64,000 nt of DNA, taken from positions 21,415 through 85,414 of the forward strand of contig DYGT01000003.1 of assembly GCA_020724555.1 (NCBI GenBank). Direction: 5' to 3'. This stretch comes from Candidatus Microgenomatus sp. GTDB taxonomy: Bacteria > Patescibacteriota > Microgenomatia > UBA8517. Of the stretch, positions 7,723-51,531 are shown piece by piece (the stretch's first letter is position 1; every line of letters begins with the position of its first letter). The position numbers and the translations under genes are program-made. Under the pieces are notes generated by a model that had not been told where the DNA came from, searched no databases, and worked only from the letters and a program-made list of their open reading frames with translations.

Positions 7723-7805
7723 ATTGGTGTAGTATCCCCAGGCTTTGCTTGGGACAAGAACGAGGAAAATAAAAAGTGAAAAAAATAAACCTATTAAGAC
7801 TTTAT

Positions 7806-7852
7806 GTGAGTGAGTGAGTGAGTGAGTGAGTGAGTGAGTGAGTGAGTGAGTG
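7806..7852 (-). repeat. tetranucleotide SSR: (GTGA)11 on plus strand = (CACT)11 in the mRNA sense, inside the 5' leader-peptide coding region of the NHL gene
   Basis: Direct reading of 7806..7852: g(tgag)x11 tg. The coding strand reads ATGTATGCA(CTCA)n...CACATAAAG. Confidence 0.95.
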
Positions 7853-8014
7853 CATACATTATTTTAAATTCAAAAGGCAAATTATTTGATCTGATTAATC
7901 TTATTAAAAGCATAAAGCCAAAAGGTTGTCAAGATTGAGAAGTTTCTAAAATAGGGTCTATACCCAAAATATTTCAATTTACAATTTTAGAAATATTTTT
8001 GGGTTCAAAATCTC

Positions 8015-30649: not shown

Positions 30650-33592
30650 TCAAGAGTGGATAGCATTTTGACGCGCTAAGTCTTCGCTGCAAAACATGGC
30701 ATATTCGCAATTATTCAGACAATAATAATGCCCAGAACAGGAAAAATCAGAAGATTCTATTTGCGCTTTTAGGCTAAACAGCTCATCTTCCAATTGTCTT
30801 AGTTGAACTTTTGTTCTGGTGGTTGTAATTTTTTTCTGCTCTTCAAAGTAATACAAGGACAGCTTGATTTGTTCGGGCTTTAGGCCCAAAAAGGGGGGCT
30901 CTTTTATTTTTGTTGCCGCCAGAGCGTATAGCGTGAGCTGCATATTTTTGTCCACGTCTTTCTGGCTAGGCACATTTTCTACGGTTTTATAATCAATAAT
31001 TTCAATGCCACCTTTTGTCTTATCCACCCGATCCATGGTGCCGCCAATTTTTAGCTGAATCTTCTTTTTACCCTCATTTTTAAGCAAAGGAATAACAAAA
31101 GGGTGCTCTAAAAGCAGCGGAAATTTATCTGGTTCAAAGCGTTTTTTAAAATATTGGGTCAGCATTTTTTCTGCGCTTTGGTAAACGGTTGTTTCATGGG
31201 TTTTACTTTGGTAACCAAGCCTAATCCAATTATCCTTAAGGCAGTCAATTATCAAACTTTGTGTAGGCTTAACCCCGGCTTTTACCGCGGCATAAAAATC
31301 TCTCAAGGCTGCATGCATACTGGAACCGAAACTCAGTTCTGCGGCAGGAGGGGTGGGAATATTTAAAATATACCTTAATTTGTAATGAAGCGGGCAAAGC
31401 TGAAAAGTGTTTATCTGTGAATATGATAAATAATGTACATGATGATGAGTAAGACTGTCTTTTCTCTCTTTTCTCTTTTTTAGCTTATGATTATTTTTAT
31501 AATCCACAAGACTGAGCTGTTGGCTTGCCACGCCCTCTTGGGAGACCACGTCACTGCCTAGTGCCTCAAAAATAAATTGGCTTAATTTCTTTTTGCGTTT
31601 TTCCTTACCATAATAATCAGAGGCAGTAAAATAAAGCCTATCTTTCGCCCTGGTCATCCCAACATAAAACAGCCGCCTTTCTTCCTGCAGCTGAAAATTA
31701 CCGGATGGTAAGGTTTCGGCAATTAGATCCACAGGAATAGGTAAAAGTTCTGACCGTGCCCGGGTGGGAAAGCGCTCGCTCACCAGGTTCACTAAAAAAA
31801 CAACCGGAAATTCAAGACCTTTGGCGGCATGAACAGTGAGAATGTTTACGGCATTAACCTGAGTCCAATCTTCCCCCGCGGTCAAAGGGGATTCGCCAAG
31901 CTCCAAAGATAGTTCAATCCAATCAACCACTGCAGCTACGCTTGCATCATCGTGTTGGACCTCGTAGCCTTTTAGTTTGTCAAACAAGCGCGAAATATTA
32001 TCCGCACTTTTTTGCACATTTGGAGTGTCCGGACGCAGCAAAGTTTTTAGATAACCGGTTTTGTCTAAAAAATCGTATAAAATCTGCCCTGCAGTTTCAT
32101 CTCTCATCTTTCTTAAGTGGGTATTTATTAAAGACAAAATTTCTTCTATTTTGTCTTTGGTACTTTTGCTGATTTTTATTTTGTCCAATTCCTCACAGGC
32201 TTCAAATAAAGTTAGATTGTATTTTTTAGAGTAACTTAATATGGCTGCCAAATCCCGCTCTTTTAAATTAAAATGCTTAAAGTTTAAAACCCTATAAAGG
32301 CTGAGCGAATCTTCAGGGTCATAAAGAACTTTTAAATATGAAATCAGATCCACTATTTCCGGTTCTTTAAAAAGTTTTCCCGGACCCAAAAACTGGTATG
32401 GTATGCCAAGCCTGTCAAAAGCTTTTAAAAAGCCGTCCGCGTGATTGTTGGCCCTTACTAAAATTGCAATGTCGCCATAATCATAACCGTTTTCTACTAA
32501 ATTTTGGATTTCCTGCCCCACATATTCTGACTCGTTTTCAAGCTTTTGTGCGTGTATAAACTGTATTGGCTCTCCTTTTTGTGTTTTTGCGGACGATATA
32601 AGCTTTTTATCAATATTTTCCACCACCTCAAGCCTATCCGGGTTGTTAAATCGGATCAGATTGTAGGCGTGGTCCAAAATAGTCTGAGTTGAGCGGTAAT
32701 TTTTGGTTAAAACCACCATTTTGCTTTCCGGGTAATCACGGCGAAATTGCAAAATGTTGGAAACGGCCGCACCGCGAAAACGGTATATGCTTTGGTCGTC
32801 GTCTCCCGTGGCCATAATATTCGCGCTACTGCCGGCAAGAATTTTTGCCAACTGATACTGGGAAAAATTAACATCCTGAAATTCATCTACTAAAACATAG
32901 CGGAATTGTTTTTGGTAGCGCGCCAGCACATTCGGACGGGTACGAAAAAGCTCTAAAGTTTTAACAATTAAATCACCAAAATCCATAACGCCTTCCGAGA
33001 TTTTAAGCTCTTCATAAGTCTTATATGCTTTTGCTAATTCAAGTATTTCCGCTGCTTCAGATTTCTCGCTTTCTCCATTAGTATTTTCCAAACTATTTGC
33101 ATAATCTAAATATTTTTTTACACTCACGTCTTCATCCTGCAGACGGGAAAAATGGGTGAGCATCGCCGAAATAAATTTGGTAGGATTTCCGCGCGGCCTG
33201 AAATAATCAAGCTCAAAATCATAGATATGTTGGCGGACCAGCTGGGTCGCTTCTGCCTCACTTGCAAGTTTAAAGCGGGGGTCAAGTCCGATGTGTAGCG
33301 CCTCCTCACGCAGTATTTGGTCACAAAAACTATGAAATGTCATAATCCACATATTGGTATAGCCGTAAGGCAGGGCAATATCTACCCGCTCTTCCATCTC
33401 GCGTGCGGCTTTTTCAGTAAAAGTCAAAGCCAATATTTCGTTTATGCTTACACTACCTTTCTCAATAAGTCTACAGACCCTCTCGGTTACTACGGTTGTT
33501 TTACCTGTGCCAGCTCCGGCAATCACAAGAAGCGGACCGCGGTCGTGTTCAATCGCTTTGATTTGCTCGGCGTTTAATTTTTTTGCAGCCAT
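30650..33592 (-). CDS. AddA/PcrA-like helicase-nuclease: UvrD-family SF1 helicase fused to a C-terminal PD-(D/E)xK (RecB/Cas4-like) nuclease with a 4-Cys cluster
   Basis: 980 aa. N-terminal helicase motifs (AGAGTGKTT, DEFQDVN, VGMTRAKD). C-terminal IIDYKT nuclease-core-like segment and CSGHYYCLNNCEYAMFC Fe-S cysteine cluster. Confidence 0.85.
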   Translation of the reverse strand: MAAKKLNAEQIKAIEHDRGPLLVIAGAGTGKTTVVTERVCRLIEKGSVSINEILALTFTEKAAREMEERVDIALPYGYTNMWIMTFHSFCDQILREEALHIGLDPRFKLASEAEATQLVRQHIYDFELDYFRPRGNPTKFISAMLTHFSRLQDEDVSVKKYLDYANSLENTNGESEKSEAAEILELAKAYKTYEELKISEGVMDFGDLIVKTLELFRTRPNVLARYQKQFRYVLVDEFQDVNFSQYQLAKILAGSSANIMATGDDDQSIYRFRGAAVSNILQFRRDYPESKMVVLTKNYRSTQTILDHAYNLIRFNNPDRLEVVENIDKKLISSAKTQKGEPIQFIHAQKLENESEYVGQEIQNLVENGYDYGDIAILVRANNHADGFLKAFDRLGIPYQFLGPGKLFKEPEIVDLISYLKVLYDPEDSLSLYRVLNFKHFNLKERDLAAILSYSKKYNLTLFEACEELDKIKISKSTKDKIEEILSLINTHLRKMRDETAGQILYDFLDKTGYLKTLLRPDTPNVQKSADNISRLFDKLKGYEVQHDDASVAAVVDWIELSLELGESPLTAGEDWTQVNAVNILTVHAAKGLEFPVVFLVNLVSERFPTRARSELLPIPVDLIAETLPSGNFQLQEERRLFYVGMTRAKDRLYFTASDYYGKEKRKKKLSQFIFEALGSDVVSQEGVASQQLSLVDYKNNHKLKKRKERKDSLTHHHVHYLSYSQINTFQLCPLHYKLRYILNIPTPPAAELSFGSSMHAALRDFYAAVKAGVKPTQSLIIDCLKDNWIRLGYQSKTHETTVYQSAEKMLTQYFKKRFEPDKFPLLLEHPFVIPLLKNEGKKKIQLKIGGTMDRVDKTKGGIEIIDYKTVENVPSQKDVDKNMQLTLYALAATKIKEPPFLGLKPEQIKLSLYYFEEQKKITTTRTKVQLRQLEDELFSLKAQIESSDFSCSGHYYCLNNCEYAMFCSEDLARQNAIHS

Positions 33593-35462: not shown

Positions 35463-36869
35463 ATGGAGAAAAATTTTTATATTACAACCACACTACCTTA
35501 CGTCAATGCAGATCCGCATCTTGGCTTTGCCTTAGAAATCGTCCAGGCGGATGTTATTGCCCGTTATCACAGATTAATCGGAGACAAAGTGATTTTTAAC
35601 TTTGGCACGGATGAACACGGCCAAAAAATATACCAAAAAGCACGAGAGGAAAACAAAAACCCCAAAGATTATGTCGACGAATACGCCGCAAAATTTAATA
35701 AGCTTAAAAAAGCCCTTAACTTAAGCTACACCAATTTTATTAGGACAACGGATGAAAGCCATATAAAAGCGGCACAAAAATTTTGGGAAATATGCAAAAA
35801 AAACGGAGATATCTATAAAAAAAACTATAAAACCAAATACTGCGTCGGGTGCGAGCTTGAAAAAACCGATTCAGAACTCGTTGGGGGAAAGTGCCCTCTG
35901 CATCCAAATATAGAGCTTGAAATTATAGAGGAAAAAAATTATTTCTTTCGCTTTTCCAAATACCAAGATAAACTTTTAAAATTTTATGAATCTCACCCGG
36001 ATTTTGTGGTTCCGGGCTTTCGCTTTAAGGAAATAAAACAATTTGTTGAAAAAGGCCTGAAAGATTTCAGTATTTCACGGCTCAAAGAAAAAATGCCGTG
36101 GGGAATAGATGTACCGGATGATCCGGACCAGGTGATGTATGTTTGGTTTGATGCTTTAATTAATTATATTTCCACCCTGGGGTGGCCGGAAAAAAATATT
36201 GATGATTATTGGCCCGGTATTCAACTATGCGGCAAAGACAACCTCCGGCAGCAAACAGCCATTTGGCAGGCGATGCTTATGTCCGCAAATATCGCCAATA
36301 CCAAGCAGGTGTTTGTCCACGGCTTTATCTCCCTGAACGGACAAAAAATGAGTAAAACCACGGGAAACGTAATTTACCCGGATAACTTAACAGAAAAGTA
36401 TGGAACGGATTCAGTCCGCTATTATCTTCTGGCACACGTCCACCCGATAGAAGACTCAGACTTTACCATGGAAAAATTTGAAAAAGCATACACCGCCGAC
36501 CTTGCAAACGGCTTGGGGAACCTCGTTTCCCGGGTAACAGCTATGGCGCAAAATTACAAAATATCCAGCAAAAACCCCACCCAATTGACTAAAAAGGTAG
36601 AAAATAATTTAAAAAAATACCGTTTCGATAAAGCCTTAAACAATATTTGGGATAATATTAGTGCGTCAGATAGTTTAATTAATAAAACTGAGGTTTGGAG
36701 TCTAAAAGAAGATAAAAAAATTACCATACTAACCGATTTAATTAATCAAATTAGGCAAATATCTTACGATCTTACCCCTTTTTTGCCGGATACTGCTGAA
36801 TTCATTAACAAACAATTGTCATCACCAAAGATAAGAAAAAACAAACCACTGTTTCCCCGCTTAAATTAA
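35463..36869 (+). CDS. metG: methionyl-tRNA synthetase (short form, 468 aa)
   Basis: Class I aaRS signatures PHLGFA (HIGH-like) and KMSKTTGN. GTDEHGQKI and the insertion pattern are typical of MetRS. Confidence 0.9.
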   Translation: MEKNFYITTTLPYVNADPHLGFALEIVQADVIARYHRLIGDKVIFNFGTDEHGQKIYQKAREENKNPKDYVDEYAAKFNKLKKALNLSYTNFIRTTDESHIKAAQKFWEICKKNGDIYKKNYKTKYCVGCELEKTDSELVGGKCPLHPNIELEIIEEKNYFFRFSKYQDKLLKFYESHPDFVVPGFRFKEIKQFVEKGLKDFSISRLKEKMPWGIDVPDDPDQVMYVWFDALINYISTLGWPEKNIDDYWPGIQLCGKDNLRQQTAIWQAMLMSANIANTKQVFVHGFISLNGQKMSKTTGNVIYPDNLTEKYGTDSVRYYLLAHVHPIEDSDFTMEKFEKAYTADLANGLGNLVSRVTAMAQNYKISSKNPTQLTKKVENNLKKYRFDKALNNIWDNISASDSLINKTEVWSLKEDKKITILTDLINQIRQISYDLTPFLPDTAEFINKQLSSPKIRKNKPLFPRLN

Positions 36870-38363
36870 ATGCTTAAAAAATTTTTAATCAAACACGAAA
36901 AAAAGGCGCTTCGGTTTTTTGAAATTTTACCTGGGTTAATATCCTGGAACCTAATTCTTTTCCCTTACTGGGGGATATTTGTTATACCTAATATAGTTGC
37001 TTACTTTATACTTATATTTAATGCCTATTGGTTTTACCAGGCATTTGGCATAGCATTCACCTCCGTTTTATCGCACATGCGTATCCAAGCTTCCATGCAT
37101 TACGATTGGATGGGGGACCTTAAAAAATTTCCGGATTGGCAAAAGGTGCACCACGTTGTCATAATTCCAACCTACAAAGAACCTCTTTACATCCTTAAGC
37201 GTACAGTGGCATCGCTCGCCGCCCAAGAACTTCCTGGAAAACAAATAACCGTCGTCTTGGCTACAGAATTTAAAGAGGATAAAAAAGAGCGGGAAAAGAA
37301 AGCCCGGGCGCTTCAAAAAAAATATGGTGACAAATTCGCTAATTTTATCATTACTGTTCATAAACTAGCCCCGGGTGAGGCGGTCGGTAAATCTTCAAAC
37401 GAGCGTTATGCTGCCCTTGAGGCTAAACGCATTTTAATTACCGAGGGCAAAATGAACATCAATTACATGACCGTAACAAGTTGTGACGCAGACCACGTAT
37501 TTCACCCTAAACACTATTCGTCCCTTACTTTTAAATTTTTAGACAACCCAGACCGCTACCGTTATTTTTGGCAACCGGCCGTACTTTTGTACAACAACAT
37601 CTGGAAGCTGCCTGCCATCACCAGAGTTCCCAACACTCTTGCTTCTATTTTTATCCTATCCATGCTACCCCGGCGTGACCGTTTAATTAACCAGCAAAAC
37701 TACACTTTATCGTTTAAACTATTGGATAAAACAGGCTACTGGGATCCGGACAGAATTCCCGAGGACTGGGGTATTTTTTTCAAAGCCTTTTTTGCCAATA
37801 AAGGCAAAATTGAGGTGGAACCGATTTATCTTCCGCTCTACGCCGACGCCATGCAATCCACGAGCCATTGGCGGACATTAAAGGGGCAATATTCCCAGGT
37901 AAAACGTTGGGCCTGGGGAGTATCTGATTCGTCTTGGATTATTTACAATTATTTAATCACTCCCGGGATATCCTTTTGGGATAAAACTACCCGCGTAAGC
38001 ACTTTTATTCACGGCCATTTCCTATGGCCGGTGCATTGGTTTGTGATCACAATAGGAATAAGCTTACCCATCATCATTAACCCCGCTTTTGGGAGAACCA
38101 CTCTGGGATACTTAACGCCAAAAATCTCTTCGCTTATTTTGACCATTGCTTTGGTATTTTTAGTTGTGATGTTGATCTTAGATTACATTTATAAACCAAA
38201 GCGCCCCAAAGATTTTCCTCTCTGGCGGGCGCTTTTGGTACCTTTGGAATTTGTTCTCATGCCGGTGGCTACATTCTTTTTTACCACTCTTCCCGGCCTT
38301 GACGCCCACACCCGCTTGATGCTAGGCAAATACATCGAATACAAAGTTACGGAGAAAGTTTAA
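36870..38363 (+). CDS. processive GT2-family beta-glycan synthase (CesA/BcsA/PgaC-like), integral membrane
   Basis: VIIPTYKEP, DxD (TSCDADHV) and QxxRW (QVKRWAWG) motifs, flanked by TM helices at both ends. Starts at the nucleotide after the metG stop. Confidence 0.85.
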   Translation: MLKKFLIKHEKKALRFFEILPGLISWNLILFPYWGIFVIPNIVAYFILIFNAYWFYQAFGIAFTSVLSHMRIQASMHYDWMGDLKKFPDWQKVHHVVIIPTYKEPLYILKRTVASLAAQELPGKQITVVLATEFKEDKKEREKKARALQKKYGDKFANFIITVHKLAPGEAVGKSSNERYAALEAKRILITEGKMNINYMTVTSCDADHVFHPKHYSSLTFKFLDNPDRYRYFWQPAVLLYNNIWKLPAITRVPNTLASIFILSMLPRRDRLINQQNYTLSFKLLDKTGYWDPDRIPEDWGIFFKAFFANKGKIEVEPIYLPLYADAMQSTSHWRTLKGQYSQVKRWAWGVSDSSWIIYNYLITPGISFWDKTTRVSTFIHGHFLWPVHWFVITIGISLPIIINPAFGRTTLGYLTPKISSLILTIALVFLVVMLILDYIYKPKRPKDFPLWRALLVPLEFVLMPVATFFFTTLPGLDAHTRLMLGKYIEYKVTEKV

Positions 38364-38810
38364 CTAAAGCCATAAATTAAATAAATAAACTGTAGTGATT
38401 ACTGAAACTACGGTAATTACCTGACAGGTGATTTGATAGATAAACCAGATAGTATATTCATCATTGAAAATTTTATAGCCGGGCAGGGATTTGCCTGGCA
38501 TACGTTTAACCTCAGAAAATTGCTGATTGAAATAATAAATTGTTTCCCCAACGCTTCGCACAAGCCAAAAAACAGAAAAAATAAGCAAAAACAAAACCCA
38601 GTCATTTAAAGCCAAGCTAACAATCGCAGCTCCCAACCAAAACAGACCAAATATTACTCCATCTGCCCAAACAAATATTCCCAGAGGCAAGAGGGGATAG
38701 GTGATCCCCAGATTATTATTTTTATACTTACATTGATAGAGGCTAAAAATAAAAACCAGAAAATTAAATACGGCAAAAAGAGTTATAGATAAATTTTGCA
38801 AACTGGTCAT
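38364..38810 (-). CDS. small polytopic membrane protein, hypothetical
   Basis: Start moved to the internal Met (MTSLQNLSITLF...). The first 30 codons of the ORF-track model read through the 113-bp repeat copy in reverse orientation and are unlikely to be real. Confidence 0.45.
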   Translation of the reverse strand: MTSLQNLSITLFAVFNFLVFIFSLYQCKYKNNNLGITYPLLPLGIFVWADGVIFGLFWLGAAIVSLALNDWVLFLLIFSVFWLVRSVGETIYYFNQQFSEVKRMPGKSLPGYKIFNDEYTIWFIYQITCQVITVVSVITTVYLFNLWL

Positions 38811-38826
38811 GGTTGTATTATATACA

Positions 38827-38939
38827 AAAATTGCTTTCCCCAAATCATAGAAATCATCCGCCGCGACACTTCTCCGCCTTTGTACAATATCACCGAACAC
38901 CTAGCTTTCAGACTCTTTGGCGTCAGCGAAATTACCATC
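38827..38939 (+). pseudogene. orphan 5' fragment of a GT-C glycosyltransferase gene: 113-bp near-perfect direct-repeat copy A of 41264..41375
   Basis: Encodes PQIIEIIRRDTSPPLYNITEHLAFRLFGVSEITI, identical to residues about 30-63 of the intact GT-C protein at 41177..42535. A single-C insertion lies after position 38929. Confidence 0.75.
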
Positions 38940-38995
38940 CCGCGGGCTTTACGCCATTATGCACCAATTATTAATCTGGCGCGGGTTAAGAGAAG

Positions 38996-41086
38996 CTAAA
39001 ACGGATACCCTGAAACAAGCATATAGTAACCACCCTGTTTGGTAACCACGGCCACGGTTTTATTCACCATGTCAAGAACTGAGTTGGGAAGGACCTTCCA
39101 CACTTCACCATCTTGGGAATATGCAAGCTTAAGGTTACCCTCTGGAAGGTTGGGGTCTAGTTTAATGGGATCATACTTAATGGCCAATAAGTATGGTGTA
39201 GCAATAACCTCAGGCATGATTTTGGCGTCATTAAAAAATGACTTGTACCAAGCGTTGTAAATGCCGCTTGCCTGCCAATATGCCCCACTTACCCGTCTTG
39301 TTCCTGTCTGGGGGGTATGGGAGACGTCAAGGTATACATCCCACAAGAATGTCGCAGGCGGGGCAAAAGAAATTACATCATTTTTGACAGTGAATCCTGA
39401 GTGTGTGGCCAAAAGATCAGGCTTTTTGGGGGTAGGAGCCGGAGCACCCGGACCAGGGATGCTTCCCCCAAAGTTAGGGCCAAACTCGGAAGTGCTGCCA
39501 TTTTTGTTGGTGGCAAGGGCGGTGAAAGTGCTTAAGCTTCCTTTACTGTCCCCGGAAACCGTTACCTCCATGCTCCACATGCGCTCGGAAGTAGTCATTG
39601 TCCCTAAAGATTCAAGACACCCTCCATAGCCTGAGGAGTGATTTGAGGATTTACACACCTCAATGGTAAATGGCGCCTCAGCTAAATTCCCCTCCAGCCA
39701 TCCCCAGATTTTGTATTTTCCATTTCCCAGATATTCCGCCCCTTGGATTTCCGGGTAGTTCATAAGGTCGTTTGGACCGGTGTCAGTATCCCCAGGGTCG
39801 TTAGGTGTTACCGTATCGCGATCGTCCCCAGCCGTCAATAAAGCGATATCGAGATTTGCGTTTCCGAAAACCCTGTTTTCTCTAAAGGTAATGCCGGATG
39901 ACTGATTAAAATCGATGCTAATTCCATTGCCATTGTTATGGGCTACCACATTTTTTCGAATGAGAACATTTGATGAATCAGCGTCTCGAACGACTAAGCC
40001 AGCCCGGATAAATATACCGCTGAGTGCATCGAAATCAGGGTTTGTACCGATATAATTTCCTTGAACTGTAGTCTCTGAAACTTTCATCAGCCGGACCAAC
40101 CCTCGTTCTTCGGTCGTTATACAGGCAAAAATGTTTGCCTCTTCACTATCGGATACGCCATCGAAATTTGTGCCTATTTGATGCCCAGTACCATTATATA
40201 AGTAAAGGTGATTTCTATATCTATCTCCTCCAGCACATTGTTTTCCAGTCTTATCAACGCCGACGTAGTTTCCAGCAAAGACAAACTCAGAACTCGGTGG
40301 CGCCCCAGTAAACAGCTCGCTAACTAAAAATGTTCCTTTATTTCCAGCATTGTAGTTTGATCCCATGATCAAATTGCGCTCGCCAATATCATCGTTCCCA
40401 TCCCCATTGGTTCCGAAAGTATTTCGGTGTGAACCATTATGAAACAGAAAACTTGCATAATTACTTGAAGTTGAGCCGCTAATGTCACTACCGAAAAAAT
40501 TCCCGTCTATCCGATTGTCATTTGAAGAGTTAAAGAAAAACGTGGCTCTACCAGGATATGCTGATCGAATCGCCAATCCACTTATTCGGTTTTTATCACC
40601 TGTGAAGTTCATCCCATCGACGTTTGCATTAACGTAGAGAGCGATTGTCAATTTGGTATTTAGCGTCTCGCCGAAAGCTGCGGTGTTTCTGGATGCACCT
40701 GTTTGGGAATAGCCGTTTATGAAAACGCCTTCCTCATCCGAAAGTGCAAGTGTGCTGGTACTTTCAATTTCCCAATAAGCATGTACGTCACCGGAGGCCG
40801 GAACATAACCAGCGTCGGTATCTGGAATATCAAATTCAATGGTGTCGTGGCCGGCGTTGGCGTTGGCGGCGGCGATGGCTTCTCTGAGGGAACAGTCGGC
40901 GTCACAGACACCATCGTTGGTGTCTTCCGTTTTGGTGACCGTATAGGTTGCGGCGCGAACCAATGAATGATTATTAATAACTAATGGATAAAAAAACAAA
41001 AAAGCCAGACTCAAAAATAGACCGCCTAAGAAACCTATTAAGAGTTTATGTGAGTGAGTGAGTGAGTGGGTGGGTGAGCATTGCAT
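38996..41086 (-). CDS. secreted parallel beta-helix (pectate-lyase-like PbH1 repeat) protein with SSR-containing signal peptide, in-frame (phase-ON)
   Basis: MQCSPTHSLTHSHKLLIGFLGGLFLSLAFLFFYP leader is paralogous to the NHL gene leader. The body has repeated NxxxGNxxxxxxGxxI beta-helix rungs (NRIDGNFFG, ISIDFNQSSGITFRENRVFGN). Confidence 0.7.
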   Translation of the reverse strand: MQCSPTHSLTHSHKLLIGFLGGLFLSLAFLFFYPLVINNHSLVRAATYTVTKTEDTNDGVCDADCSLREAIAAANANAGHDTIEFDIPDTDAGYVPASGDVHAYWEIESTSTLALSDEEGVFINGYSQTGASRNTAAFGETLNTKLTIALYVNANVDGMNFTGDKNRISGLAIRSAYPGRATFFFNSSNDNRIDGNFFGSDISGSTSSNYASFLFHNGSHRNTFGTNGDGNDDIGERNLIMGSNYNAGNKGTFLVSELFTGAPPSSEFVFAGNYVGVDKTGKQCAGGDRYRNHLYLYNGTGHQIGTNFDGVSDSEEANIFACITTEERGLVRLMKVSETTVQGNYIGTNPDFDALSGIFIRAGLVVRDADSSNVLIRKNVVAHNNGNGISIDFNQSSGITFRENRVFGNANLDIALLTAGDDRDTVTPNDPGDTDTGPNDLMNYPEIQGAEYLGNGKYKIWGWLEGNLAEAPFTIEVCKSSNHSSGYGGCLESLGTMTTSERMWSMEVTVSGDSKGSLSTFTALATNKNGSTSEFGPNFGGSIPGPGAPAPTPKKPDLLATHSGFTVKNDVISFAPPATFLWDVYLDVSHTPQTGTRRVSGAYWQASGIYNAWYKSFFNDAKIMPEVIATPYLLAIKYDPIKLDPNLPEGNLKLAYSQDGEVWKVLPNSVLDMVNKTVAVVTKQGGYYMLVSGYPF
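41050..41078 (-). repeat. short, interrupted (GTGA)4-(GTGG)2-GTGA tract in the leader-peptide codons of the beta-helix gene
   Basis: gtgagtgagtgagtgagtgggtgggtgag, encodes the THSLTHS leader and is in frame with ATG 41086. Confidence 0.9.
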
Positions 41087-41176
41087 CTTAATTCATAATA
41101 TTTATTATTTTTCGACTTGTAAAGTCTTATTTTTATGCTTAAAACTTAAGTATCCCAAATTGCATTCCCAAGCGTT

Positions 41177-42535
41177 TTGCCGCTATATTTAAATATGAAC
41201 CAGTTTACAGCTCCTTTGTGGGGAGATGAGGCATTTTCCGCCATTTTGTCCATGAAATCTATCCCCCAAATCATAGAAATCATCCGCCGCGACACTTCTC
41301 CGCCTTTGTACAATATCACCGAACACCTAGCTTTCAGACTCTTTGGCGTCAGCGAAATTACCATCCGCGGGCTTTCTTTTTTTTATTATCTTTTAACCAT
41401 TGTTTTTGTCTTTTTAATCGCCAAATTAATCTGGGATAAAAAAACCGCCATTTTAGCTTCACTTTTAACCTTTTTTAACCCCTTTTTCTTTATTTATGCT
41501 TTTGAAGGAAGGATGTACGCGATCATGGCTTTGGGGGTAGCAGGCTCCATGTATTTTTTCCTAAAATTATTATTTGCTGCAAAAAAAACCAATAAAGCCC
41601 CAAAAGGAACCATCTTGGGCTACATTCTTGCAACCTCCTGGGCTTTGTACAGCCACCACTTTGCCATATTTATTGTCTTTATTCAGGGATTTTGGTGGCT
41701 CTTTGAATTAATCACAAAAAATTTCAAATTTATAAAATGGCAATTAATCGCGTTTCTTGGCACCGGAATTTTATATATACCCTGGCTTTTGCCTTTATAT
41801 GAGCAAACACAAATGGTAGGTGGGGGATTTTGGTTGGGTAAACCTACTTTAACAGATTTAAGAACATTAATTTATGAATACATTGCCACAGGCATCAAGC
41901 ACCCTTTGGCAGACTATGCCTTATACCTTAGTTTAACCGCACTACTCATCAGGCGCTGGGATAAAAATATCAAAATCAGCCTCATCCTCGCAACTTGGTT
42001 TTTAGGCCCAATCATTATGACATTTACAATCTCCCAATTTTTCCAGCCGGTTTTTTACAACAGATACCTTTTGTACACCATCCCGGCTTGGGGGCTTCTT
42101 ATTGCCGGCGCCAGAAGAAAAGTAATTTCTTTTATAATTATCGCCGGCATTTTGAGTCTTTTTATCCGCATTGATTGGCATTATTTTAATAATCCCACAA
42201 AACTTCCTTTTAACCAGCTTGCTCAGTTTGTTATTGAAAGTAAAAGAAACGACGATACTTTAATAAACTGGTCTGCCGGTTCACACCACTTATGGGAAAG
42301 CAAATTCTACGGGATTCCCGCCCCGATTTATGTAAAGGAAGGTGGGGGAGAGCTTCCTTTTTTTGTGGGTACGGCACTTATGGAAGAAACGGATGTAATA
42401 AAAACTTTGCCTGATGAAGGCCGAATTGGCGTTATCACGAGTGGCCCAGTTGAGGAAGTTGCCATTACTGGTTATACTGAAATTGAGAGCAAATCTTTTG
42501 GCAATCTTAAATTTATATGGCTAGAAAAAAATTAA
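41177..42535 (+). CDS. GT-C superfamily glycosyltransferase (PMT/ArnT-like) with N-terminal DE motif
   Basis: 452 aa, about 11 TM. WGDEAFSAILS catalytic DE motif in the first extracytoplasmic loop. Contains repeat copy B (41264..41375). Confidence 0.7.
   Translation: MPLYLNMNQFTAPLWGDEAFSAILSMKSIPQIIEIIRRDTSPPLYNITEHLAFRLFGVSEITIRGLSFFYYLLTIVFVFLIAKLIWDKKTAILASLLTFFNPFFFIYAFEGRMYAIMALGVAGSMYFFLKLLFAAKKTNKAPKGTILGYILATSWALYSHHFAIFIVFIQGFWWLFELITKNFKFIKWQLIAFLGTGILYIPWLLPLYEQTQMVGGGFWLGKPTLTDLRTLIYEYIATGIKHPLADYALYLSLTALLIRRWDKNIKISLILATWFLGPIIMTFTISQFFQPVFYNRYLLYTIPAWGLLIAGARRKVISFIIIAGILSLFIRIDWHYFNNPTKLPFNQLAQFVIESKRNDDTLINWSAGSHHLWESKFYGIPAPIYVKEGGGELPFFVGTALMEETDVIKTLPDEGRIGVITSGPVEEVAITGYTEIESKSFGNLKFIWLEKN
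41264..41375 (+). repeat. direct-repeat copy B (112 bp) inside the GT-C gene, identical to 38827..38939 except for 1 nt
   Basis: Base-by-base comparison of the two segments. Confidence 0.95.
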
Positions 42536-44025
42536 ACCAATTCCTAAACGCCATTCATACCCCGAACTGGGTTGCTCTTCTACTTTTAGGGCTATTTTTG
42601 CTTCGCATCCCTAGTTTTTTTGAGCCTTTTAATTATGGCGATGAAATGATTTATTTGACGCTTGGCCAGGGAATTAACAAAGGGCTTGTCTTATATAAAG
42701 ACATCCACGATAACAAACCTCCCCTTTTGTACCTTACCGCGGCTGTAGCTGGAAACGTTTTTTGGTTTAGGGTAATACTGGCATTTTGGATGATGGCTAC
42801 TACCATAATTTTTTGGAAGTTAACAGACAGGCTTTTTCCCAAAAATACAAAGCTTGTCAAAGCCGCCACAATCTTTTTTGGCATCTTTACGACCATTCCT
42901 TTGCTGGAAGGCCAAACCGCCAATGCTGAATTATTTTTAATAGGACCGGTTATCGCTGCTTTTTATCTGGTTGTTAACAAAAAGGCAAAACTTTGGCACT
43001 ACGCTTTCTCGGGGTTATTGTTTTCCATCGCTACATTATTTAAAGTTCCGGCGGCTTTTGATGGTTTAGCATTAATTTTTGTTTTGTTTATTCTTAGTAA
43101 AAATAAATTAAACAAAAAGGATTTCTTTCAAAAAAGCCTGTTGGTCTTGTTCGGCTTTATAACCCCAATTTTTGTGAGTTTTGTTTGGTACTGGTTGCGC
43201 GGCGCCTTGAATGAATATCTTGTTGCAGCATATTTACAAAATGTAGGTTATCTTTCCTCCTGGCGGCCCGGGGACGCCACTGAGCCTTTTATTGTGCGAA
43301 ACGCCCCGCTTCTTGCCAGGGGTGTCGTTATGTTTGCCGGTTATGCAATCCTTTATCTTTACCGCAAAAAATTGTCACTTCCCTTTTTACTGGGAAGCGC
43401 CTGGCTACTAAGCAGTCTTTTTGCCATAACTTTGTCGGAGCGGCCTTATCCTCATTACCTGGTGCAAGCCATTCCCGCGATTTCTCTCTTGTTTGGGATG
43501 CTACTTTTCAAAAAAGACATAGAACAAACCTTTACTATTATTCCCTTATTTTTGGCACTACTTGTACCTGTATATTATAATTTCTGGCACTATCCGACGC
43601 TACCTTACTACACACGATTTATTAATTTTGCAACGGGTGCTATTAACAAAGAAGAATACTTTAACCGTTTCGAAGGCAATGTTAACCGTAACTATGAAAT
43701 TGCCAAATTTTTACGCGAATCCAGTGCGCCTCACGATCGGGTATTTGTCTGGGGAGATGCGGCATCAACTATCTATGCTCTTTCAAGAAGACTGCCGCCA
43801 ATTAAATATGTAGCAACCTACCACATCAACGATTTCGCAAGCAAAGAAGAAATAATCACGGCCATAGATTCCCAAAAACCCGCATATGTTATAGTATTAT
43901 CCGAAGCTGAACATTTTAACGAACTTAATTCTTATTTAAATTTAAATTACATGCAAATAAAGACAATAGACGACGCCGTTATCTGGCGTCTTATTAATCC
44001 CCGGGTGCTGAGTATCATCCGCTAG
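42517..44025 (+). CDS. GT-C superfamily glycosyltransferase (ArnT/PMT-like), second paralog
   Basis: 502 aa, NYGDEMIYLTLGQ DE motif after TM1, about 12 TM, C-terminal soluble domain. Overlaps the upstream GT-C stop. Confidence 0.7.
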   Translation: MARKKLNQFLNAIHTPNWVALLLLGLFLLRIPSFFEPFNYGDEMIYLTLGQGINKGLVLYKDIHDNKPPLLYLTAAVAGNVFWFRVILAFWMMATTIIFWKLTDRLFPKNTKLVKAATIFFGIFTTIPLLEGQTANAELFLIGPVIAAFYLVVNKKAKLWHYAFSGLLFSIATLFKVPAAFDGLALIFVLFILSKNKLNKKDFFQKSLLVLFGFITPIFVSFVWYWLRGALNEYLVAAYLQNVGYLSSWRPGDATEPFIVRNAPLLARGVVMFAGYAILYLYRKKLSLPFLLGSAWLLSSLFAITLSERPYPHYLVQAIPAISLLFGMLLFKKDIEQTFTIIPLFLALLVPVYYNFWHYPTLPYYTRFINFATGAINKEEYFNRFEGNVNRNYEIAKFLRESSAPHDRVFVWGDAASTIYALSRRLPPIKYVATYHINDFASKEEIITAIDSQKPAYVIVLSEAEHFNELNSYLNLNYMQIKTIDDAVIWRLINPRVLSIIR

Positions 44026-44026
44026 T

Positions 44027-44392
44027 ATGAAGAAAAAAAAAATTTCTAACCTGCCAATTAGCCGGCTGGCATTCCCATCTACCTACTTAGTGGTACTGGT
44101 ATTTAATCTTTTAACAATAGCTTTAATATTTTTGCTAAAATCACAGCTTCCTCCTGAAATTCCGCTTTTTTATGGCAGGCCTTTTGGCCAAGAGCAACTG
44201 GCGCAAAGCATCAAGCTGATTATTCTGCCTATAACGGCTTTTGTTATTGCACTTTTTAATGCAATACTTAGCGTTGTTATAAGCAGCCGTTTTTTAACAC
44301 AAATACTTTTAGGGGTGGCGATTATCACCACCACCCTTGCCTTTATAGCCGTACTGCAGATTATATTTTTGGTAGGCAGCTTTTGGCCATGA
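44027..44392 (+). CDS. small 3-4 TM membrane protein (GtrA-like size/topology, unverified)
   Basis: 121 aa, sits between the GT-C genes and the WecA-like gene in the same operon. Confidence 0.4.
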   Translation: MKKKKISNLPISRLAFPSTYLVVLVFNLLTIALIFLLKSQLPPEIPLFYGRPFGQEQLAQSIKLIILPITAFVIALFNAILSVVISSRFLTQILLGVAIITTTLAFIAVLQIIFLVGSFWP

Positions 44393-45450
44393 ATCAAACA
44401 TTTCATCTAGCTTTTGTCGTTTCTGCTTTTTTAGCTTTTATCCTTACTTATCCTGTAATTAAATTGGCAAAAAAATGGGGGATTGTGGACGACCCCCAAA
44501 AAAACAAACACCCCAAAGTCACTCACACCTATCCGGTGCCAAGGGGAGGTGGTTTGGCAATATACTTAAGCTTGGTTATAAGCGCCTTATTTTTTTTACC
44601 ATTAGACCAACACTTATTGGGAATTATCCTTGGTGCCAGCGTCCTTCTCATCGTCGGCCTGCTGGATGACAAATTTGACCTTAACCCCTACCTCAGGCTG
44701 GGGGCTCAATTTTTAGCAGCATCTCTTCCTATTATGGCCGGCATCGGTATCGCATATATGACAAACCCTTTTGGTGGAATTATTGACCTTTCCCATCCAC
44801 AAATAAGTTTTTTTCTGTTTGGCGAAACCAGAAGTATTTGGATTTTGTCAGACTTGTTTGCCCTTTTTTGGATCGTCACTTTGATAAATTTCATAAATAT
44901 GGGCGCCAAAGGAGTAGACGGCCAGCTTCCCGGGGTCGCGGCTATCGCTGCTTTTACATTGGCTGTTTTATCTCTTCGTTTTTCTGCCGACATTACCGAA
45001 TGGCCGGTAATAATCCTTGCACTCATCACCGCCGGGGCATTTTTGGGTTTTTTACCTTGGAATATGTATCCGCAAAAAATAATGCCGAGTTTTTCAGGGT
45101 CTAACTTAGCCGGCTACATGCTGGGGATTCTTTCGATCTTAACAACCGCCAAAATCGGAACGCTTTTGTTGGTCTTGGGCATCCCGCTTATCGATACCAG
45201 TTTTACAATAATAAGGCGCATCTCCCACGGAAAATCGCCCGTCTGGGGGGATAGGGGACACCTTCACCATAAACTTTTGGATGCAGGCCTTCCGCGCAAA
45301 AGTATTGCTCCCATATATTGGCTGTTTACAGCAATTCTTGGCTTTGGTGCTTTATATTTGAACGCCACCAATAAGTTATATACAATATTGGGGATCTCAT
45401 TATTATTGGCGGGAATACTGCTATGGCTTACCTATCGACAAAAACATTAA
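44383..45450 (+). CDS. polyprenyl-phosphate N-acetylhexosamine-1-phosphate transferase (MraY/WecA/TagO GT4 family)
   Basis: GLLDDKFDL (DDxxD), NFINMGAKGVDGQLPG (NxxNxxDGxDGL), GDRGHLHHKLL (His-rich cytoplasmic loop). About 10 TM. Confidence 0.85.
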   Translation: MAMNQTFHLAFVVSAFLAFILTYPVIKLAKKWGIVDDPQKNKHPKVTHTYPVPRGGGLAIYLSLVISALFFLPLDQHLLGIILGASVLLIVGLLDDKFDLNPYLRLGAQFLAASLPIMAGIGIAYMTNPFGGIIDLSHPQISFFLFGETRSIWILSDLFALFWIVTLINFINMGAKGVDGQLPGVAAIAAFTLAVLSLRFSADITEWPVIILALITAGAFLGFLPWNMYPQKIMPSFSGSNLAGYMLGILSILTTAKIGTLLLVLGIPLIDTSFTIIRRISHGKSPVWGDRGHLHHKLLDAGLPRKSIAPIYWLFTAILGFGALYLNATNKLYTILGISLLLAGILLWLTYRQKH

Positions 45451-47840: not shown

Positions 47841-48727
47841 CAAATTATATTTTCTTTAAGATAAGCTTTAAATTCCCGGCTTATATCTTTGTGCTTTAAC
47901 GCGTGGTCAACTATGGTTTTTAAATAACCAAGTTTATCGCCGGTATCATAATACTTTCCTCCCTTGATCTCCGCGGACAAAATTTTTTCGCCTCCGGCAA
48001 GCATCAGCTTTAATACGTCATTATAGTAAAGCTCACCCCCATTTATATTTGTCAAGGCTTGGTCTAAATATTTAAAAATATCAGGAGTAAAGAGAAAACT
48101 ACTTACATTGCCCAAATCACTTGGCGCGTTTTCTTTACCGGGTTTTTCAATAATATTTTTAATCTCAATAACACCGGGCTCAATTTCAATACCTCCCGCA
48201 TACCCATATTTTTCATAATCCGCGTCGACTTGGGCTCTAATCCCGGCCAGCACACTGCACTTATATTTTTCATGCAGAGCTATAAGCTGCTTGAATTCAG
48301 ATGGCTGAGCCTCAATAAAATCGTCACTCCATGTATAAATAAACGGTTCTTCCCCCACAATTTCGCCCACATTCAATAAAGGTGTTCCATTGCCATACGG
48401 ACCCTTTTGCCGCACATAATAAAAATTAGCTAAATTCGCAATCTTTTCAATTTCCTCCAAAAGATGGCGTTTTTTTTCGCCCCCAAGCTTTAAATTTTCA
48501 ATAAGCTCCAGCGAAGGGTTGTCAAAATGGTCTTCGATGGCACGCTTGTGGTAACCGGTAACAATAATAATGTCGGTTATCCCCGCCTCGACCAAATTTT
48601 CCACAACAATTTGGATTACGGGTTTGTCAACAACCGGCAACATCTCTTTGGGCATAGCTTTGGTTTGGGGCAAAAAACGGGTTCCGAAACCGGCGGCTGG
48701 AATTACTGCTTTAGTCACACTTGCCAT
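47840..48727 (-). CDS. galU: UTP--glucose-1-phosphate uridylyltransferase
   Basis: AVIPAAGFGTRFLPQTKAMPKEMLPVVDKPVIQ is the GalU N-terminal signature. 295 aa. Stop codon abuts the tRNA-Cys 3' end. Confidence 0.9.
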   Translation of the reverse strand: MASVTKAVIPAAGFGTRFLPQTKAMPKEMLPVVDKPVIQIVVENLVEAGITDIIIVTGYHKRAIEDHFDNPSLELIENLKLGGEKKRHLLEEIEKIANLANFYYVRQKGPYGNGTPLLNVGEIVGEEPFIYTWSDDFIEAQPSEFKQLIALHEKYKCSVLAGIRAQVDADYEKYGYAGGIEIEPGVIEIKNIIEKPGKENAPSDLGNVSSFLFTPDIFKYLDQALTNINGGELYYNDVLKLMLAGGEKILSAEIKGGKYYDTGDKLGYLKTIVDHALKHKDISREFKAYLKENII

Positions 48728-48738
48728 GGAACTTAATT

Positions 48739-49608
48739 TTACACCAAATAATATTTGCCTGCACTCTCGCGGATTAACCCTTTTAGGCTCAAATTTGTTA
48801 TAGCAATAGACACATTCGAAACGCTATCTTTAAGCTCATAAGCTATCTCGTCTAAACTTAAGGCTTCTTGGCCAAGAATTTGCCACAGCCGCAGTTCATT
48901 TCCGCTTAAATCTGCCGGGGGCGTTTGTTTTTGGGTTTTGGGTCGGGCTGATCCTAAAATATCGAGGCTACAAGTTACCAACTTTGCCTTGCCCTTTTTA
49001 ATCAACTCATTGGTGCCGCCAGACACGCTTGAGGTAATAGCACCAGGTACAGCGTAAACGCGCCTGCCTTCTTTATGCGCCAACCGAGCCGTAACCAAAG
49101 AACCACTTTTATCGGCTGCTTCAATTATTAAAACTCCAATAGTCGAAAGCCCAACCACAATCCGGTTTCTTTGGGGAAATTTCCACAGATGAGGCCTGGC
49201 TTTAGGTTCATATTCAGAAACAACGAGCCCTTTGGTCTTTAAAATATCCTCATATAAACTTATATTTTCCGGGGGGTAAACAACGTCAAGTCCGCAGCCA
49301 AAAACCGCAATGGTTTGCCCGCCAAGTGCTATGGTTTGGGCGTGCACTTCACTATCTACGCCGTACATAAAACCGGATATGGTTACCACCCTTTCCGATA
49401 CTATGTCCGGCAGCAAGCGCGCGATGACAGTCTCGCCATAGTGTGTCATCCTCCGGCTACCGACAATAGCCAGCGTTTTTGAGGTAAGTACATCCGGGTT
49501 GCCGCGTACGTATAGCTTCCTCGGCGGATTTTTAATTTTTTTTAAACGCCCGGGAAAATCTTTATCGCTTAAACTTATTTCCCGGATCGGATAAGCAAAA
49601 ATACTCAT
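48739..49608 (-). CDS. dprA: DNA-processing protein DprA (Smf)
   Basis: Rossmann-like DprA core (LAIVGSRRMTHYG, IVVGLSTIGVLIIEAADKSGSLVTARLA) plus a C-terminal winged-helix-like tail. Confidence 0.9.
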   Translation of the reverse strand: MSIFAYPIREISLSDKDFPGRLKKIKNPPRKLYVRGNPDVLTSKTLAIVGSRRMTHYGETVIARLLPDIVSERVVTISGFMYGVDSEVHAQTIALGGQTIAVFGCGLDVVYPPENISLYEDILKTKGLVVSEYEPKARPHLWKFPQRNRIVVGLSTIGVLIIEAADKSGSLVTARLAHKEGRRVYAVPGAITSSVSGGTNELIKKGKAKLVTCSLDILGSARPKTQKQTPPADLSGNELRLWQILGQEALSLDEIAYELKDSVSNVSIAITNLSLKGLIRESAGKYYLV

Positions 49609-49998: not shown

Positions 49999-51531
49999 TT
50001 AACTAACACCCCTTACTCTATATTGAAGAGCTTCGGCAACGTGGCTAGCTTTTATGTCTTTGGCGCCTTCCAAATCCGCAATGGTTCTTGCTACCTTAAT
50101 TAAACGGAAATAGGTTCTCGCCGAAAGACCATATGTATTAACTGCCTGTTTTAAAAGTAAAAGTGAATCCCCCGTGAGTTCGCAATATTTTTTAATATGC
50201 TTATTTTTCATATCAGCATTGACTATAATTTTATCTTTGGCAAAGCGCGCTTTTTGAATATTTCTGGCGTTAATTACTTCTCCGCGTATTTCCTTTGATG
50301 TTTTAGATTTAAAAGCCGGCATTTTCGCCATAAGCTTATCAGTATCCACCGCCGCAACCGTTAAGTGAAGATCAATCCTATCCATAAGAGGACCCGAAAG
50401 CTTGCTTTGGTAACGCATTATCATCCTGGGGCTACAAGTGCAGGCTCGTTTTTCGTCTCCCAAATATCCGCACGGGCACGGGTTACTCGCGGCAACCAAC
50501 ATAAACTGTGCCGGATAAGTTACCGAGCCGGCGGCACGCGTTATGGATACCCTACCGTCTTCCATGGGCTGCCTTAAGGCTTCAAGCGTACTTCTGGAAA
50601 ACTCGGGAAATTCATCTAAAAACATCACACCCCTATGAGCCAGGGAAATCTCCCCGGGGTGTGGATTACTGCCTCCACCGATTAAGCCTATGCGGCTTGT
50701 TGTGTGGTGGGATACACGAAAAGGACGCTTGGTCATAAGCGATGAACCGGGCGGGATATTGCCGGTCACGGAATAGATTTTTGTCACTTCCAGACTCTCC
50801 TCCTCGGTTAAAGGCGGAAGTATCCCGGCCATGGCCCGGGCAAGCATGGTTTTACCCGCACCCGGCGGACCCTGAAGGTGTACGTTATGGCCACCGGCTG
50901 CCGCGATAGTTAAGGCACGTTTGGCTTGCTCCTGGCCGATTATTTCTGAAAAATCAAACTCGGCTCTAAAAACATCTTTTTTATTTGCTATTTCCACCAA
51001 CTTATGGGGAGAAATTAAATTAACGCCGTTTAAATGCGATATTAAATCATTTAAAGTCTTAACCGGATAGACATTTATCCCCTTTACTACAGCGGCTTCA
51101 TTGGCAGAAACGTAGGGTACAAATAAATTTTTAACTTTTTGCTTTTTGGCGGACAGCGCCAAAAGCAGAACACCTTTGGTATGCCTCAAAGTCCCATCCA
51201 ATGATAATTCTCCATAAAAATATGATTTTTCTTTAGGCATGGGTATGGCCTCCATGCTCCGGAGAATTCCTATAGCGATAGGCAAATCATAGGCACTGCC
51301 TTCTTTGGGAATGTCGGCAGGGGCCAAATTGACGATAATTTTTTTATTTGGGAAATCTACGCCGCTATTGGCAAGAGCAGTTTTAACCCTTTCTTTGGCC
51401 TCTTCCACAGATTTTCCGGCCAAGCCGATAACGGAAAAACCGGGGAAACCTTTCGAAAAGACATTAACCTCGACCTCTATTGGAATTGTCTCCAGGCCAA
51501 AATGTGTAGCAGAGAGAACTTTTGTCAGCAC
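49999..51531 (-). CDS. comM: YifB/ComM-family Mg-chelatase-like AAA+ ATPase
   Basis: 510 aa. N-terminal Lon-like domain, AAA+ Walker A (LQGPPGAGKTMLA) and Walker B (MFLDEFPEF), C-terminal Mg-chelatase subunit ChlI-like domain. Confidence 0.9.
   Translation of the reverse strand: MLTKVLSATHFGLETIPIEVEVNVFSKGFPGFSVIGLAGKSVEEAKERVKTALANSGVDFPNKKIIVNLAPADIPKEGSAYDLPIAIGILRSMEAIPMPKEKSYFYGELSLDGTLRHTKGVLLLALSAKKQKVKNLFVPYVSANEAAVVKGINVYPVKTLNDLISHLNGVNLISPHKLVEIANKKDVFRAEFDFSEIIGQEQAKRALTIAAAGGHNVHLQGPPGAGKTMLARAMAGILPPLTEEESLEVTKIYSVTGNIPPGSSLMTKRPFRVSHHTTSRIGLIGGGSNPHPGEISLAHRGVMFLDEFPEFSRSTLEALRQPMEDGRVSITRAAGSVTYPAQFMLVAASNPCPCGYLGDEKRACTCSPRMIMRYQSKLSGPLMDRIDLHLTVAAVDTDKLMAKMPAFKSKTSKEIRGEVINARNIQKARFAKDKIIVNADMKNKHIKKYCELTGDSLLLLKQAVNTYGLSARTYFRLIKVARTIADLEGAKDIKASHVAEALQYRVRGVS

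Follow-up and report, generated by a model that had tools for sequence, protein, structure and literature searches.

A 112-bp direct repeat around a beta-helix surface-protein gene in a Woesebacteria glycosylation locus: most likely a scar of recombination

Background

In the 64,000-nt stretch of DNA analysed here (the window; Candidatus Microgenomatus sp., contig DYGT01000003.1), a segment of 112/113 bp from a predicted glycosyltransferase gene, GT-C#1, is present twice in direct orientation, and between the two copies lies the gene of a predicted beta-helix surface protein. The locus raises the question of whether such a repeat is a device or the trace of a past event. The comparisons given below indicate that the enclosed gene is an insertion, and that the repeat is most likely the leftover duplication of the recombination which brought it in, ie a real feature with an ordinary mechanism and of a known kind.

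Results and Discussion

The repeat

Copy A covers 38838-38950 (113 bp) and copy B 41264-41375 (112 bp), with a start-to-start distance of 2,426 bp. An earlier note on this DNA had described a 112/113-bp segment occurring twice in direct orientation, about 2.4 kb apart and differing by one C, and alignment bears this out: there are no substitutions, and the only difference is that copy A has an additional C, CCATCC[C]GCGGG at 38939-38941. The 103-bp block within the repeat is the longest exact repeat of the window, compared with 14-20 bp in 10 shuffled windows, so the repeat is far above chance. Apart from simple sequence repeats (SSRs) there is no other long direct repeat in the whole 64 kb, and only a tetranucleotide tract is comparable.

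The earlier note also placed copy B within an intact gene and took copy A for a stranded fragment, and both descriptions hold. Copy B makes up codons 24-60 of GT-C#1, which is full length at 446 aa. Copy A lacks a start codon and codons 1-23, the extra C shifts its frame, and it is non-coding. The position of copy A, which had been given as upstream of the beta-helix gene, has to be reversed. That gene is on the minus strand and copy A is on its 3' side, 45 bp past the stop codon and 27 bp ahead of the start of a small gene called X here, ie between the two; the SSR leader of the beta-helix gene is at the opposite end of the inserted cassette, adjoining copy B.

The empty site

The comparison with related genomes that had been proposed in the earlier note gave a positive result. 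Related loci have gene X directly followed by GT-C#1, without a beta-helix gene (L010, L011, L012-L015, L021, L022, L031, L032 and L034; GT-C#1 62-88% identical). Around the GT-C#1 homologues P0002 (87% identical; in L010 and L011) and P0003 (84%; in L012-L015) the order is methionyl-tRNA synthetase (MetRS), a GT2-type glycosyltransferase, X on the minus strand, a spacer of 54 bp, GT-C#1 and GT-C#2. Beside the homologue P0004 (73%; in L017) even gene X is absent. No homologue of the beta-helix gene was found near GT-C#1 in about 20 related Woesebacteria loci. The X-type empty sites, together with the absence of the beta-helix gene from the relatives, show that the bracketed DNA is an insertion, as the earlier note had supposed, and the place of insertion is a variable slot; a predicted surface-protein gene has thus been gained between X and GT-C#1. 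The cassette was also rightly said to carry that gene with its leader, since it includes a promoter-like region of its own as well as the SSR leader. The elements of the locus are as follows.

38364..38810, minus strand: gene X, a 148-aa predicted membrane protein without family assignment, ATG at 38810; left neighbour of the ancestral empty site
38811..38843, no strand: X-proximal retained part of the ancestral X/GT-C spacer (contiguous alignment to the empty-site spacers of L010, L011, L014 and L032)
38838..38950, plus strand: copy A, orphan GT-C#1 fragment (codons 24-60, with one extra C); from alignment, junctions also in L002, L003 and L009
38951..38995, minus strand: cassette 3' tail, 45 bp, no counterpart in empty sites
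38996..41086, minus strand: inserted beta-helix gene, 696 aa, with CSLREA domain, right-handed beta-helix and N-terminal signal anchor (TIGR04214, PF13229)
41050..41078, minus strand: imperfect (GTGA/GTGG)x7 tetranucleotide repeat in codons 3-12 of the beta-helix gene, in frame (ON)
41087..41150, minus strand: cassette-borne region upstream of the beta-helix gene, promoter-like TTTACA-17-TATTAT at 41123-41095, no empty-site counterpart
41151..41194, plus strand: right-hand copy of the ancestral spacer (positions 11-54), with GT-C promoter-like TTGCAT-18-TATATT before the ATG (alignment to empty sites)
41195..42535, plus strand: GT-C#1, PMT_2/GT39-like, 446 aa, intact (Pfam PMT_2, 120 homologues)
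41264..41375, plus strand: copy B, the resident repeat copy inside GT-C#1 (codons 24-60; from alignment)

The resident gene, GT-C#1, matches PMT_2 (PF13231) with 30.6 bits against a gathering cut-off of 26.1. Its residues 9-21 form the conserved WGDEAFSAILSMK motif, and WGDE..FSAILSMK, which includes the acidic motif of the first loop, WGDE, is conserved at at least 80% in 120 GT-C#1 homologues. It is a member of the GT-C / PMT_2 (GT39-like) glycosyltransferase family by sequence, and its activity is predicted from that membership. The homologues are Woesebacteria proteins and the 120 compared have lengths of 430-475 aa, so that GT-C#1, with 446 aa, is full length. Truncation of its 5' end with loss of the first transmembrane helix was considered and rejected on account of those lengths, and because nearly all the homologues have just 8-9 residues ahead of WGDE.

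Orthologues of gene X, with 148-149 aa and 67-84% identity, are present in L010, L012, L021, L022, L031, L032 and L034. A scan of genome contigs with gene X returned just three loci, distant and non-syntenic. The 178-aa open reading frame (ORF) given for this gene in the JGI record was rejected as an over-call, being X plus 30 spurious codons taken from the antisense of copy A; the extension from 148 to 178 aa is an annotation artefact which stems from the repeat. Read in antisense, the two copies (window 38811-38900 and 41189-41326, minus strand) give one and the same spurious peptide, MFGDIVQRRRSVAADDFYDLG.

Junctions of the inserted DNA

When the empty-site contigs were compared with the window by BLASTN, the left flank reached 38843 and the right flank started at 41151. 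A stretch of 22 bp of the empty site (spacer positions 11-32; L011 1120-1141) aligns to both 38822-38843 and 41151-41172, so that the duplication is longer than the earlier note had seen and includes part of the old spacer. On the left, the ancestral spacer can be followed without a break from the start of X as far as ...ATTGCTTTCC, after which the sequence jumps to CCAAATCATAG, where the repeat starts. Relative to the empty site this side lacks 96 bp, namely spacer positions 33-54 and codons 1-23 of GT-C#1; with TTTTCCAAACG in the ancestral spacer and ATCCCCCAAATC in the gene, the jump falls on a CC(C)AAA microhomology. The left edge of copy A is the junction of this deletion, TTTCC|CCAAATC, and at its right edge, 38950|38951, there is a new joint with the 3' tail of the cassette. 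On the right, spacer positions 11-54 are intact and continuous with full-length GT-C#1. The duplicated target consists of spacer 11-54 plus GT-C#1 nt 1-182, about 225 bp in all, of which the left copy, internally deleted, retains 112 + 22 bp. The repeat segment is single-copy in the empty-site contigs L010, L011, L014 and L032.

The cassette proper is 38951-41150, 2.2 kb, comprising the 45-bp tail, the beta-helix ORF and 64 bp of promoter-like region. It has a single ORF, and no transposase or integrase domain was found in it by gene calls and Pfam search. The genes called in the 10 kb to the left and to the right of it include no recombinase Pfam family. Terminal inverted or direct repeats of the cassette did not rise above chance, the end-alignment scores being equal to the shuffle means, and viral contigs gave no match to the cassette. 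Compositional foreignness of the inserted gene was looked for and rejected. Its G+C content (GC) of 0.458 and its GC at third codon positions (GC3) of 0.439, against window means of 0.418 and 0.399 (standard deviation about 0.04), lie within one standard deviation of the window's genes and suggest that the donor was related.

Assembly of the locus

A repeat of this kind could also be created by the assembler, and the earlier note had named a collapse of the assembly as something that would speak against its reading. The data come from metagenomes and the Logan contigs are interrupted precisely at the repeat, as would be seen if two strains had been joined in a chimera or the repeat had been resolved wrongly. 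However, a k=31 graph must break at a 103-bp exact repeat, and such breaks are expected of any graph of that kind. Two contigs holding the left junction end within copy A, L002 (SRR5011275) at 38867 and L003 (SRR6488484) at 38856, ie 30 and 19 nt into it; contigs L005 and L007 begin at 41337 and L006 at 41264. Contig L009 (SRR6488487_150, 2,377 bp) spans 38917-41293 and contains the repeat|tail and promoter|spacer junctions. Each of the three novel junctions (spacer|repeat, repeat|tail and promoter|spacer) is thus inside at least one independent contig from SRR5011275, SRR6488484 or SRR6488487. The JGI contig Ga0246236_1000119 has the same full order and matches the window perfectly across the locus. 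Over 21.5 kb it shows seven mismatches, all at 48178-48241 and none in the locus, and because of these seven differences the two must be separate assemblies. With the junctions recurring in contigs of independent runs, the repeat is no artefact of collapse, and we regard an assembly error as a very improbable source of it. The 64 bp at 48178-48241 in which the differences fall belong to an NTP_transferase gene, and look like a short patch of recombination or of strain difference.

Origin of the duplication

A single crossover between a chromosome and a circle carrying a 5' gene fragment has as its textbook product an insert flanked by a direct duplication of the target, with one copy intact. 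At this locus the insert is flanked by direct copies of a contiguous segment that is single-copy in the empty site; copy B is continuous with the intact gene, and copy A is cut off at 38950 and joined to the 45-bp tail. We therefore consider that the repeat is probably a recombination scar and not a device, produced by Campbell-type integration of a recircularised fragment followed by a deletion at microhomology. The ancestor had GT2, X on the minus strand, the 54-bp spacer and GT-C#1. In a donor fragment the cassette would have been linked to nt 1-182 of GT-C#1, and a plausible source is a sister strain with the beta-helix gene in its slot; this fragment would have been taken up or cut out, and recircularised. 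One RecA-type crossover in the shared stretch would then have put it into a genome with an X-type slot, and the orphan copy would afterwards have lost 96 bp by slippage at CC(C)AAA. The circle, the donor and the order of these events are what we infer; the empty site, the extent and continuity of the flanks, the missing 96 bp and the lack of mobility genes were found directly.

There are close precedents. In E. coli, linear DNA that shared homology on one side only was in most cases trimmed and recircularised and then integrated by a RecA-dependent single crossover, with duplication of 109-950 bp of the homologous locus; homology-facilitated illegitimate recombination in the true sense was seldom seen in that work (Amarir-Bouhram et al. 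2011, PMC3240628). As there, the insert in the present locus lies between direct duplications of a contiguous homologous locus (about 225 bp), one copy runs on into the intact gene, the other breaks off where the homologous fragment ended, and no dedicated recombinase is required. The present case differs in being a natural event in uncultured Woesebacteria with a postulated donor and circle, and in having an orphan with a 96-bp deletion and duplication parts that have diverged unequally. Homology-facilitated illegitimate recombination is itself known from natural transformation in Acinetobacter, S. pneumoniae and P. stutzeri (summarised in PMC3240628). It resembles our locus in the foreign DNA beside a homologous anchor and in the one illegitimate joint (repeat|tail), and the window has DprA and ComM-like genes. 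In its classical form, however, it replaces or deletes recipient DNA and the anchor is not duplicated. The DprA gene and that of the ComM-like Mg-chelatase ATPase (48739-49608 and 49999-51531), which are competence-type DNA-processing genes 7-10 kb from the scar, would by inference be consistent with a DNA-uptake route for the gene gain.

Several points weigh against integration followed by deletion. The orphan does not contain the whole homologous fragment, 96 bp being gone, and a second event is required for their loss. The proposed donor arrangement, a beta-helix gene next to GT-C#1 without X or copy A, is absent from about 20 related loci (17 JGI loci plus Logan and NCBI contexts), and the nearest beta-helix homologue is just 58% identical and in another context. 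The order of the pieces depends on short-read assemblies: in the k=31 graphs the integrated form is indistinguishable from, and the data thus compatible with, a deleted chromosome plus a 2.4-kb circle, and the linear order rests on the two longer assemblies. The last point concerns divergence. The 112-bp parts differ by one indel and no substitutions, and from this near-identity the earlier note had concluded that the event was recent; the corresponding segment is 18-19% different in the nearest relatives. The adjacent 22-bp spacer parts have three substitutions and two single-base indels between copies, so that this conclusion is not secure. By Fisher's test the 22-bp and the 112-bp parts contrast significantly (p = 0.0026 when substitutions are counted, p = 0.0004 with all differences), and this makes the inference of recency weaker than it looks. 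A single same-genome duplication does not predict it, and an extra assumption is required. The donor of the right-hand copy may have been different at the border of the slot; gene conversion, which cannot cross the 96-bp gap, may have homogenised the long block; or the 112-bp piece may have been copied in later.

This last option leads to the main rival, a template switch or templated patch, in which the cassette would have entered the spacer illegitimately, earlier or in the same event, and 107-113 bp of GT-C#1 would have been copied as filler at the CC/CCAAA microhomology. The orphan would then never have had codons 1-23, and the younger look of the 112-bp block would be explained without a deletion step: no substitutions in the repeat against five differences in the 22-bp spacer, as if the repeat were younger than the insertion. 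The microhomology at the left junction is merely a short C-run/CCAAA, the extra C could be a single-base error 10 bp from the right joint, and the failure to find the donor allele in about 20 related loci also favours such a patch. On the other hand, at least two or three template jumps would be required, the 22 bp of spacer on both sides are left unexplained by the patch alone, and repair of this type has no direct evidence in these organisms. We regard it as a serious alternative which is nevertheless unlikely. A mobile element with its own recombinase, with the repeats as attL/attR of an integrase island or as a long transposon target-site duplication, is a reading to which we give hardly any weight. 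The insert is discrete and lies between identical direct repeats, as with the att duplications of islands and prophages, where one repeat likewise restores the end of the target gene; the slot is moreover a hotspot, which in L036 holds a reverse transcriptase and a KilA-N gene. Unlike islands and prophages, the cassette has no integrase, carries a single gene and targets the 5' end of a protein-coding gene, with one imperfect end to the duplication. Nor were the signs of a transposon or insertion sequence found: there is no integrase or transposase domain in the 2.2-kb cassette with its one ORF, no recombinase gene was called within 10 kb on each side, terminal inverted repeats were not found and no viral contig matched. 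The duplicated target (22 bp, imperfect, plus 112 bp; about 225 bp originally) is not short and identical, and is far above the length of transposon target duplications. This reading is largely refuted.

Consequences of the repeat

The repeats had also been proposed as a substrate for deletion or duplication of the cassette. They do provide a substrate, but the product of deletion would not be the ancestral site, since the start of GT-C#1 would be lost with it. The predicted product is a 437-codon ORF from a TTG at 38796, lacking the GT-C promoter, codons 1-23 and the WGDE..FSAILSMK motif, so that loss of the cassette through its repeats would cost the cell GT-C#1. The junction of the deletion product would read left flank-repeat-...CCATCCGCGGGCTTTCTTTT, and that of a circle or tandem would read promoter/codons 1-23-repeat-...CCATCCCGCGGGCTTTACGCC.

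An antisense transcript of copy A is expected only if transcription of the beta-helix gene continues as far as X. Such a read-through RNA would carry the antisense of GT-C#1 nt 70-181, with a possible regulatory side effect. One may go further and suppose that copy A is a retained regulatory element, whose 113-nt antisense RNA, a perfect complement to codons 24-60 of the GT-C#1 mRNA, would down-tune or co-process the glycosyltransferase; the lack of substitutions would then reflect selection for pairing, and the cassette would be locked in place because excision destroys GT-C#1. Copy A does lie in antisense in the interval from the beta-helix stop codon to X, where no intrinsic terminator was found, and its 112 bp are without substitution although non-coding. 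Against this, the genomes with the cassette are all near-identical and conservation among them carries no information; no unusual or stable fold was found over copy A (z = 0.49); and recency or gene conversion is a simpler reason for the identity. A regulatory role of this sort seems improbable to us, and the integration scar remains the preferred account.

The beta-helix gene and its leader

The inserted gene encodes a protein that matches TIGR04214 with 39.7 bits (cut-off 25) and PF13229 with 33.9 bits (cut-off 25.9), and is a CSLREA-domain right-handed beta-helix protein as judged by these profiles. Its nearest non-self homologue, the one with 58% identity, is in L016 (JGI Ga0130016_10015079) beside a different PMT-type gene. 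The leader of that homologue (L016 1-240), MLTCSHKLIIGL, is without the tetranucleotide tract, which suggests that the SSR was expanded in the window's lineage; the contig begins 28 bp ahead of the gene. A second surface-type gene of the window, at 5599-7859 on the minus strand (707 aa, NHL-like), has a perfect (GTGA)x11.8 tract at 7806-7852 after two ATGs. The frame that continues into its signal anchor, HKVLIGLFFSLFIFLVLVPSKAWG, has no start codon, which puts the gene out of phase (OFF). Its leader (51 nt) and that of the beta-helix gene, at 41028-41078, are 92% identical. The idea that the two are paralogues was rejected, as the genes have nothing but this leader in common and encode unrelated proteins. 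The findings suggest a shared, possibly phase-variable leader module in a bacterium of the candidate phyla radiation (CPR).

The likeness to tetranucleotide contingency loci of the Haemophilus/Neisseria type is in the (GTGA)n within the first codons and in the second gene with the same leader (5599-7722) being out of frame. It differs from them in that the tract of the beta-helix gene shows no length polymorphism between assemblies, being identical in the window, the JGI contig and SRR6488487 (assemblies only), and the tract is a feature of the cargo, not of the 112-bp repeat.

Neighbouring genes and the variable slot

The genes on either side of the slot are listed below.

35463-36869, plus strand: MetRS
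36870..38363, plus strand: GT2-type glycosyltransferase, conserved left border of the variable slot (Pfam Glyco_trans_2_3)
42517..44025, plus strand: GT-C#2, conserved right-hand neighbour
44027-44392, plus strand: 121-aa protein (p121)
44383-45450, plus strand: GT4

The order MetRS, GT2, [slot], GT-C#1, GT-C#2, p121, GT4 is kept in most of 17 further JGI loci; L025, L028 and L037 have no GT2 within the stretches covered. Where present, GT2 is always upstream of the slot, with 82-94% identity in the closest relatives and 62-69% in more distant ones. In about 20 Woesebacteria loci the shortest gap between GT2 and GT-C#1 is 26 bp and the longest 6.8 kb. No flanking repeats of a similar kind were found in the slots of the relatives, which have the following contents.

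L023, L024, L029, L033: slot empty, 26-43 bp
L022, L031, L032, L034: X alone
L021: X and an Exo_endo_phos gene
L012: X and two small genes
L036: 6.8 kb, with a 682-aa Ig/fn3 protein, a reverse transcriptase, a KilA-N gene and an Lcl_C gene

The segment 161-7000 of L036 (JGI Ga0209518_1000002), with its Ig/fn3 surface protein, RVT_1, KilA-N and Lcl_C genes, may be a diversity-generating retroelement with its target. MetRS (35463-36869) is 87%, 71%, 42% and 39% identical in L010, L012, L017 and L021, the adjacent GT2 being 82-94% identical. To judge from these values, some lineages seem to have exchanged their MetRS for a distant version, immediately next to the highly conserved GT2. Elsewhere in the window, two inverted repeats (28281-28326/31797-31842, 46 nt, 85%; 27590-27629/32662-32701, 40 nt, 78%) link the opposed UvrD-type helicase genes at 26753-28603 and 30650-33592, and are probably conserved motifs of these paralogues.

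Conclusions

The insertion scar in this Woesebacteria glycosylation locus is real, well supported and of a known kind. It carries two warnings: the near-identity of flanking repeats is an unsafe clock, the neighbouring 22-bp duplicate having diverged, and annotation may be misled by such a repeat, as in the JGI call for X with its spurious codons. The cargo and its SSR leader may merit more attention than the repeat, since two unrelated surface proteins share one leader, in frame in one and out of frame in the other. The locus gives a base-level view of a small-genome CPR bacterium adding an accessory surface-protein gene to a variable slot in a conserved envelope glycosylation cluster, without mobile-element machinery and probably by homologous recombination after DNA uptake.

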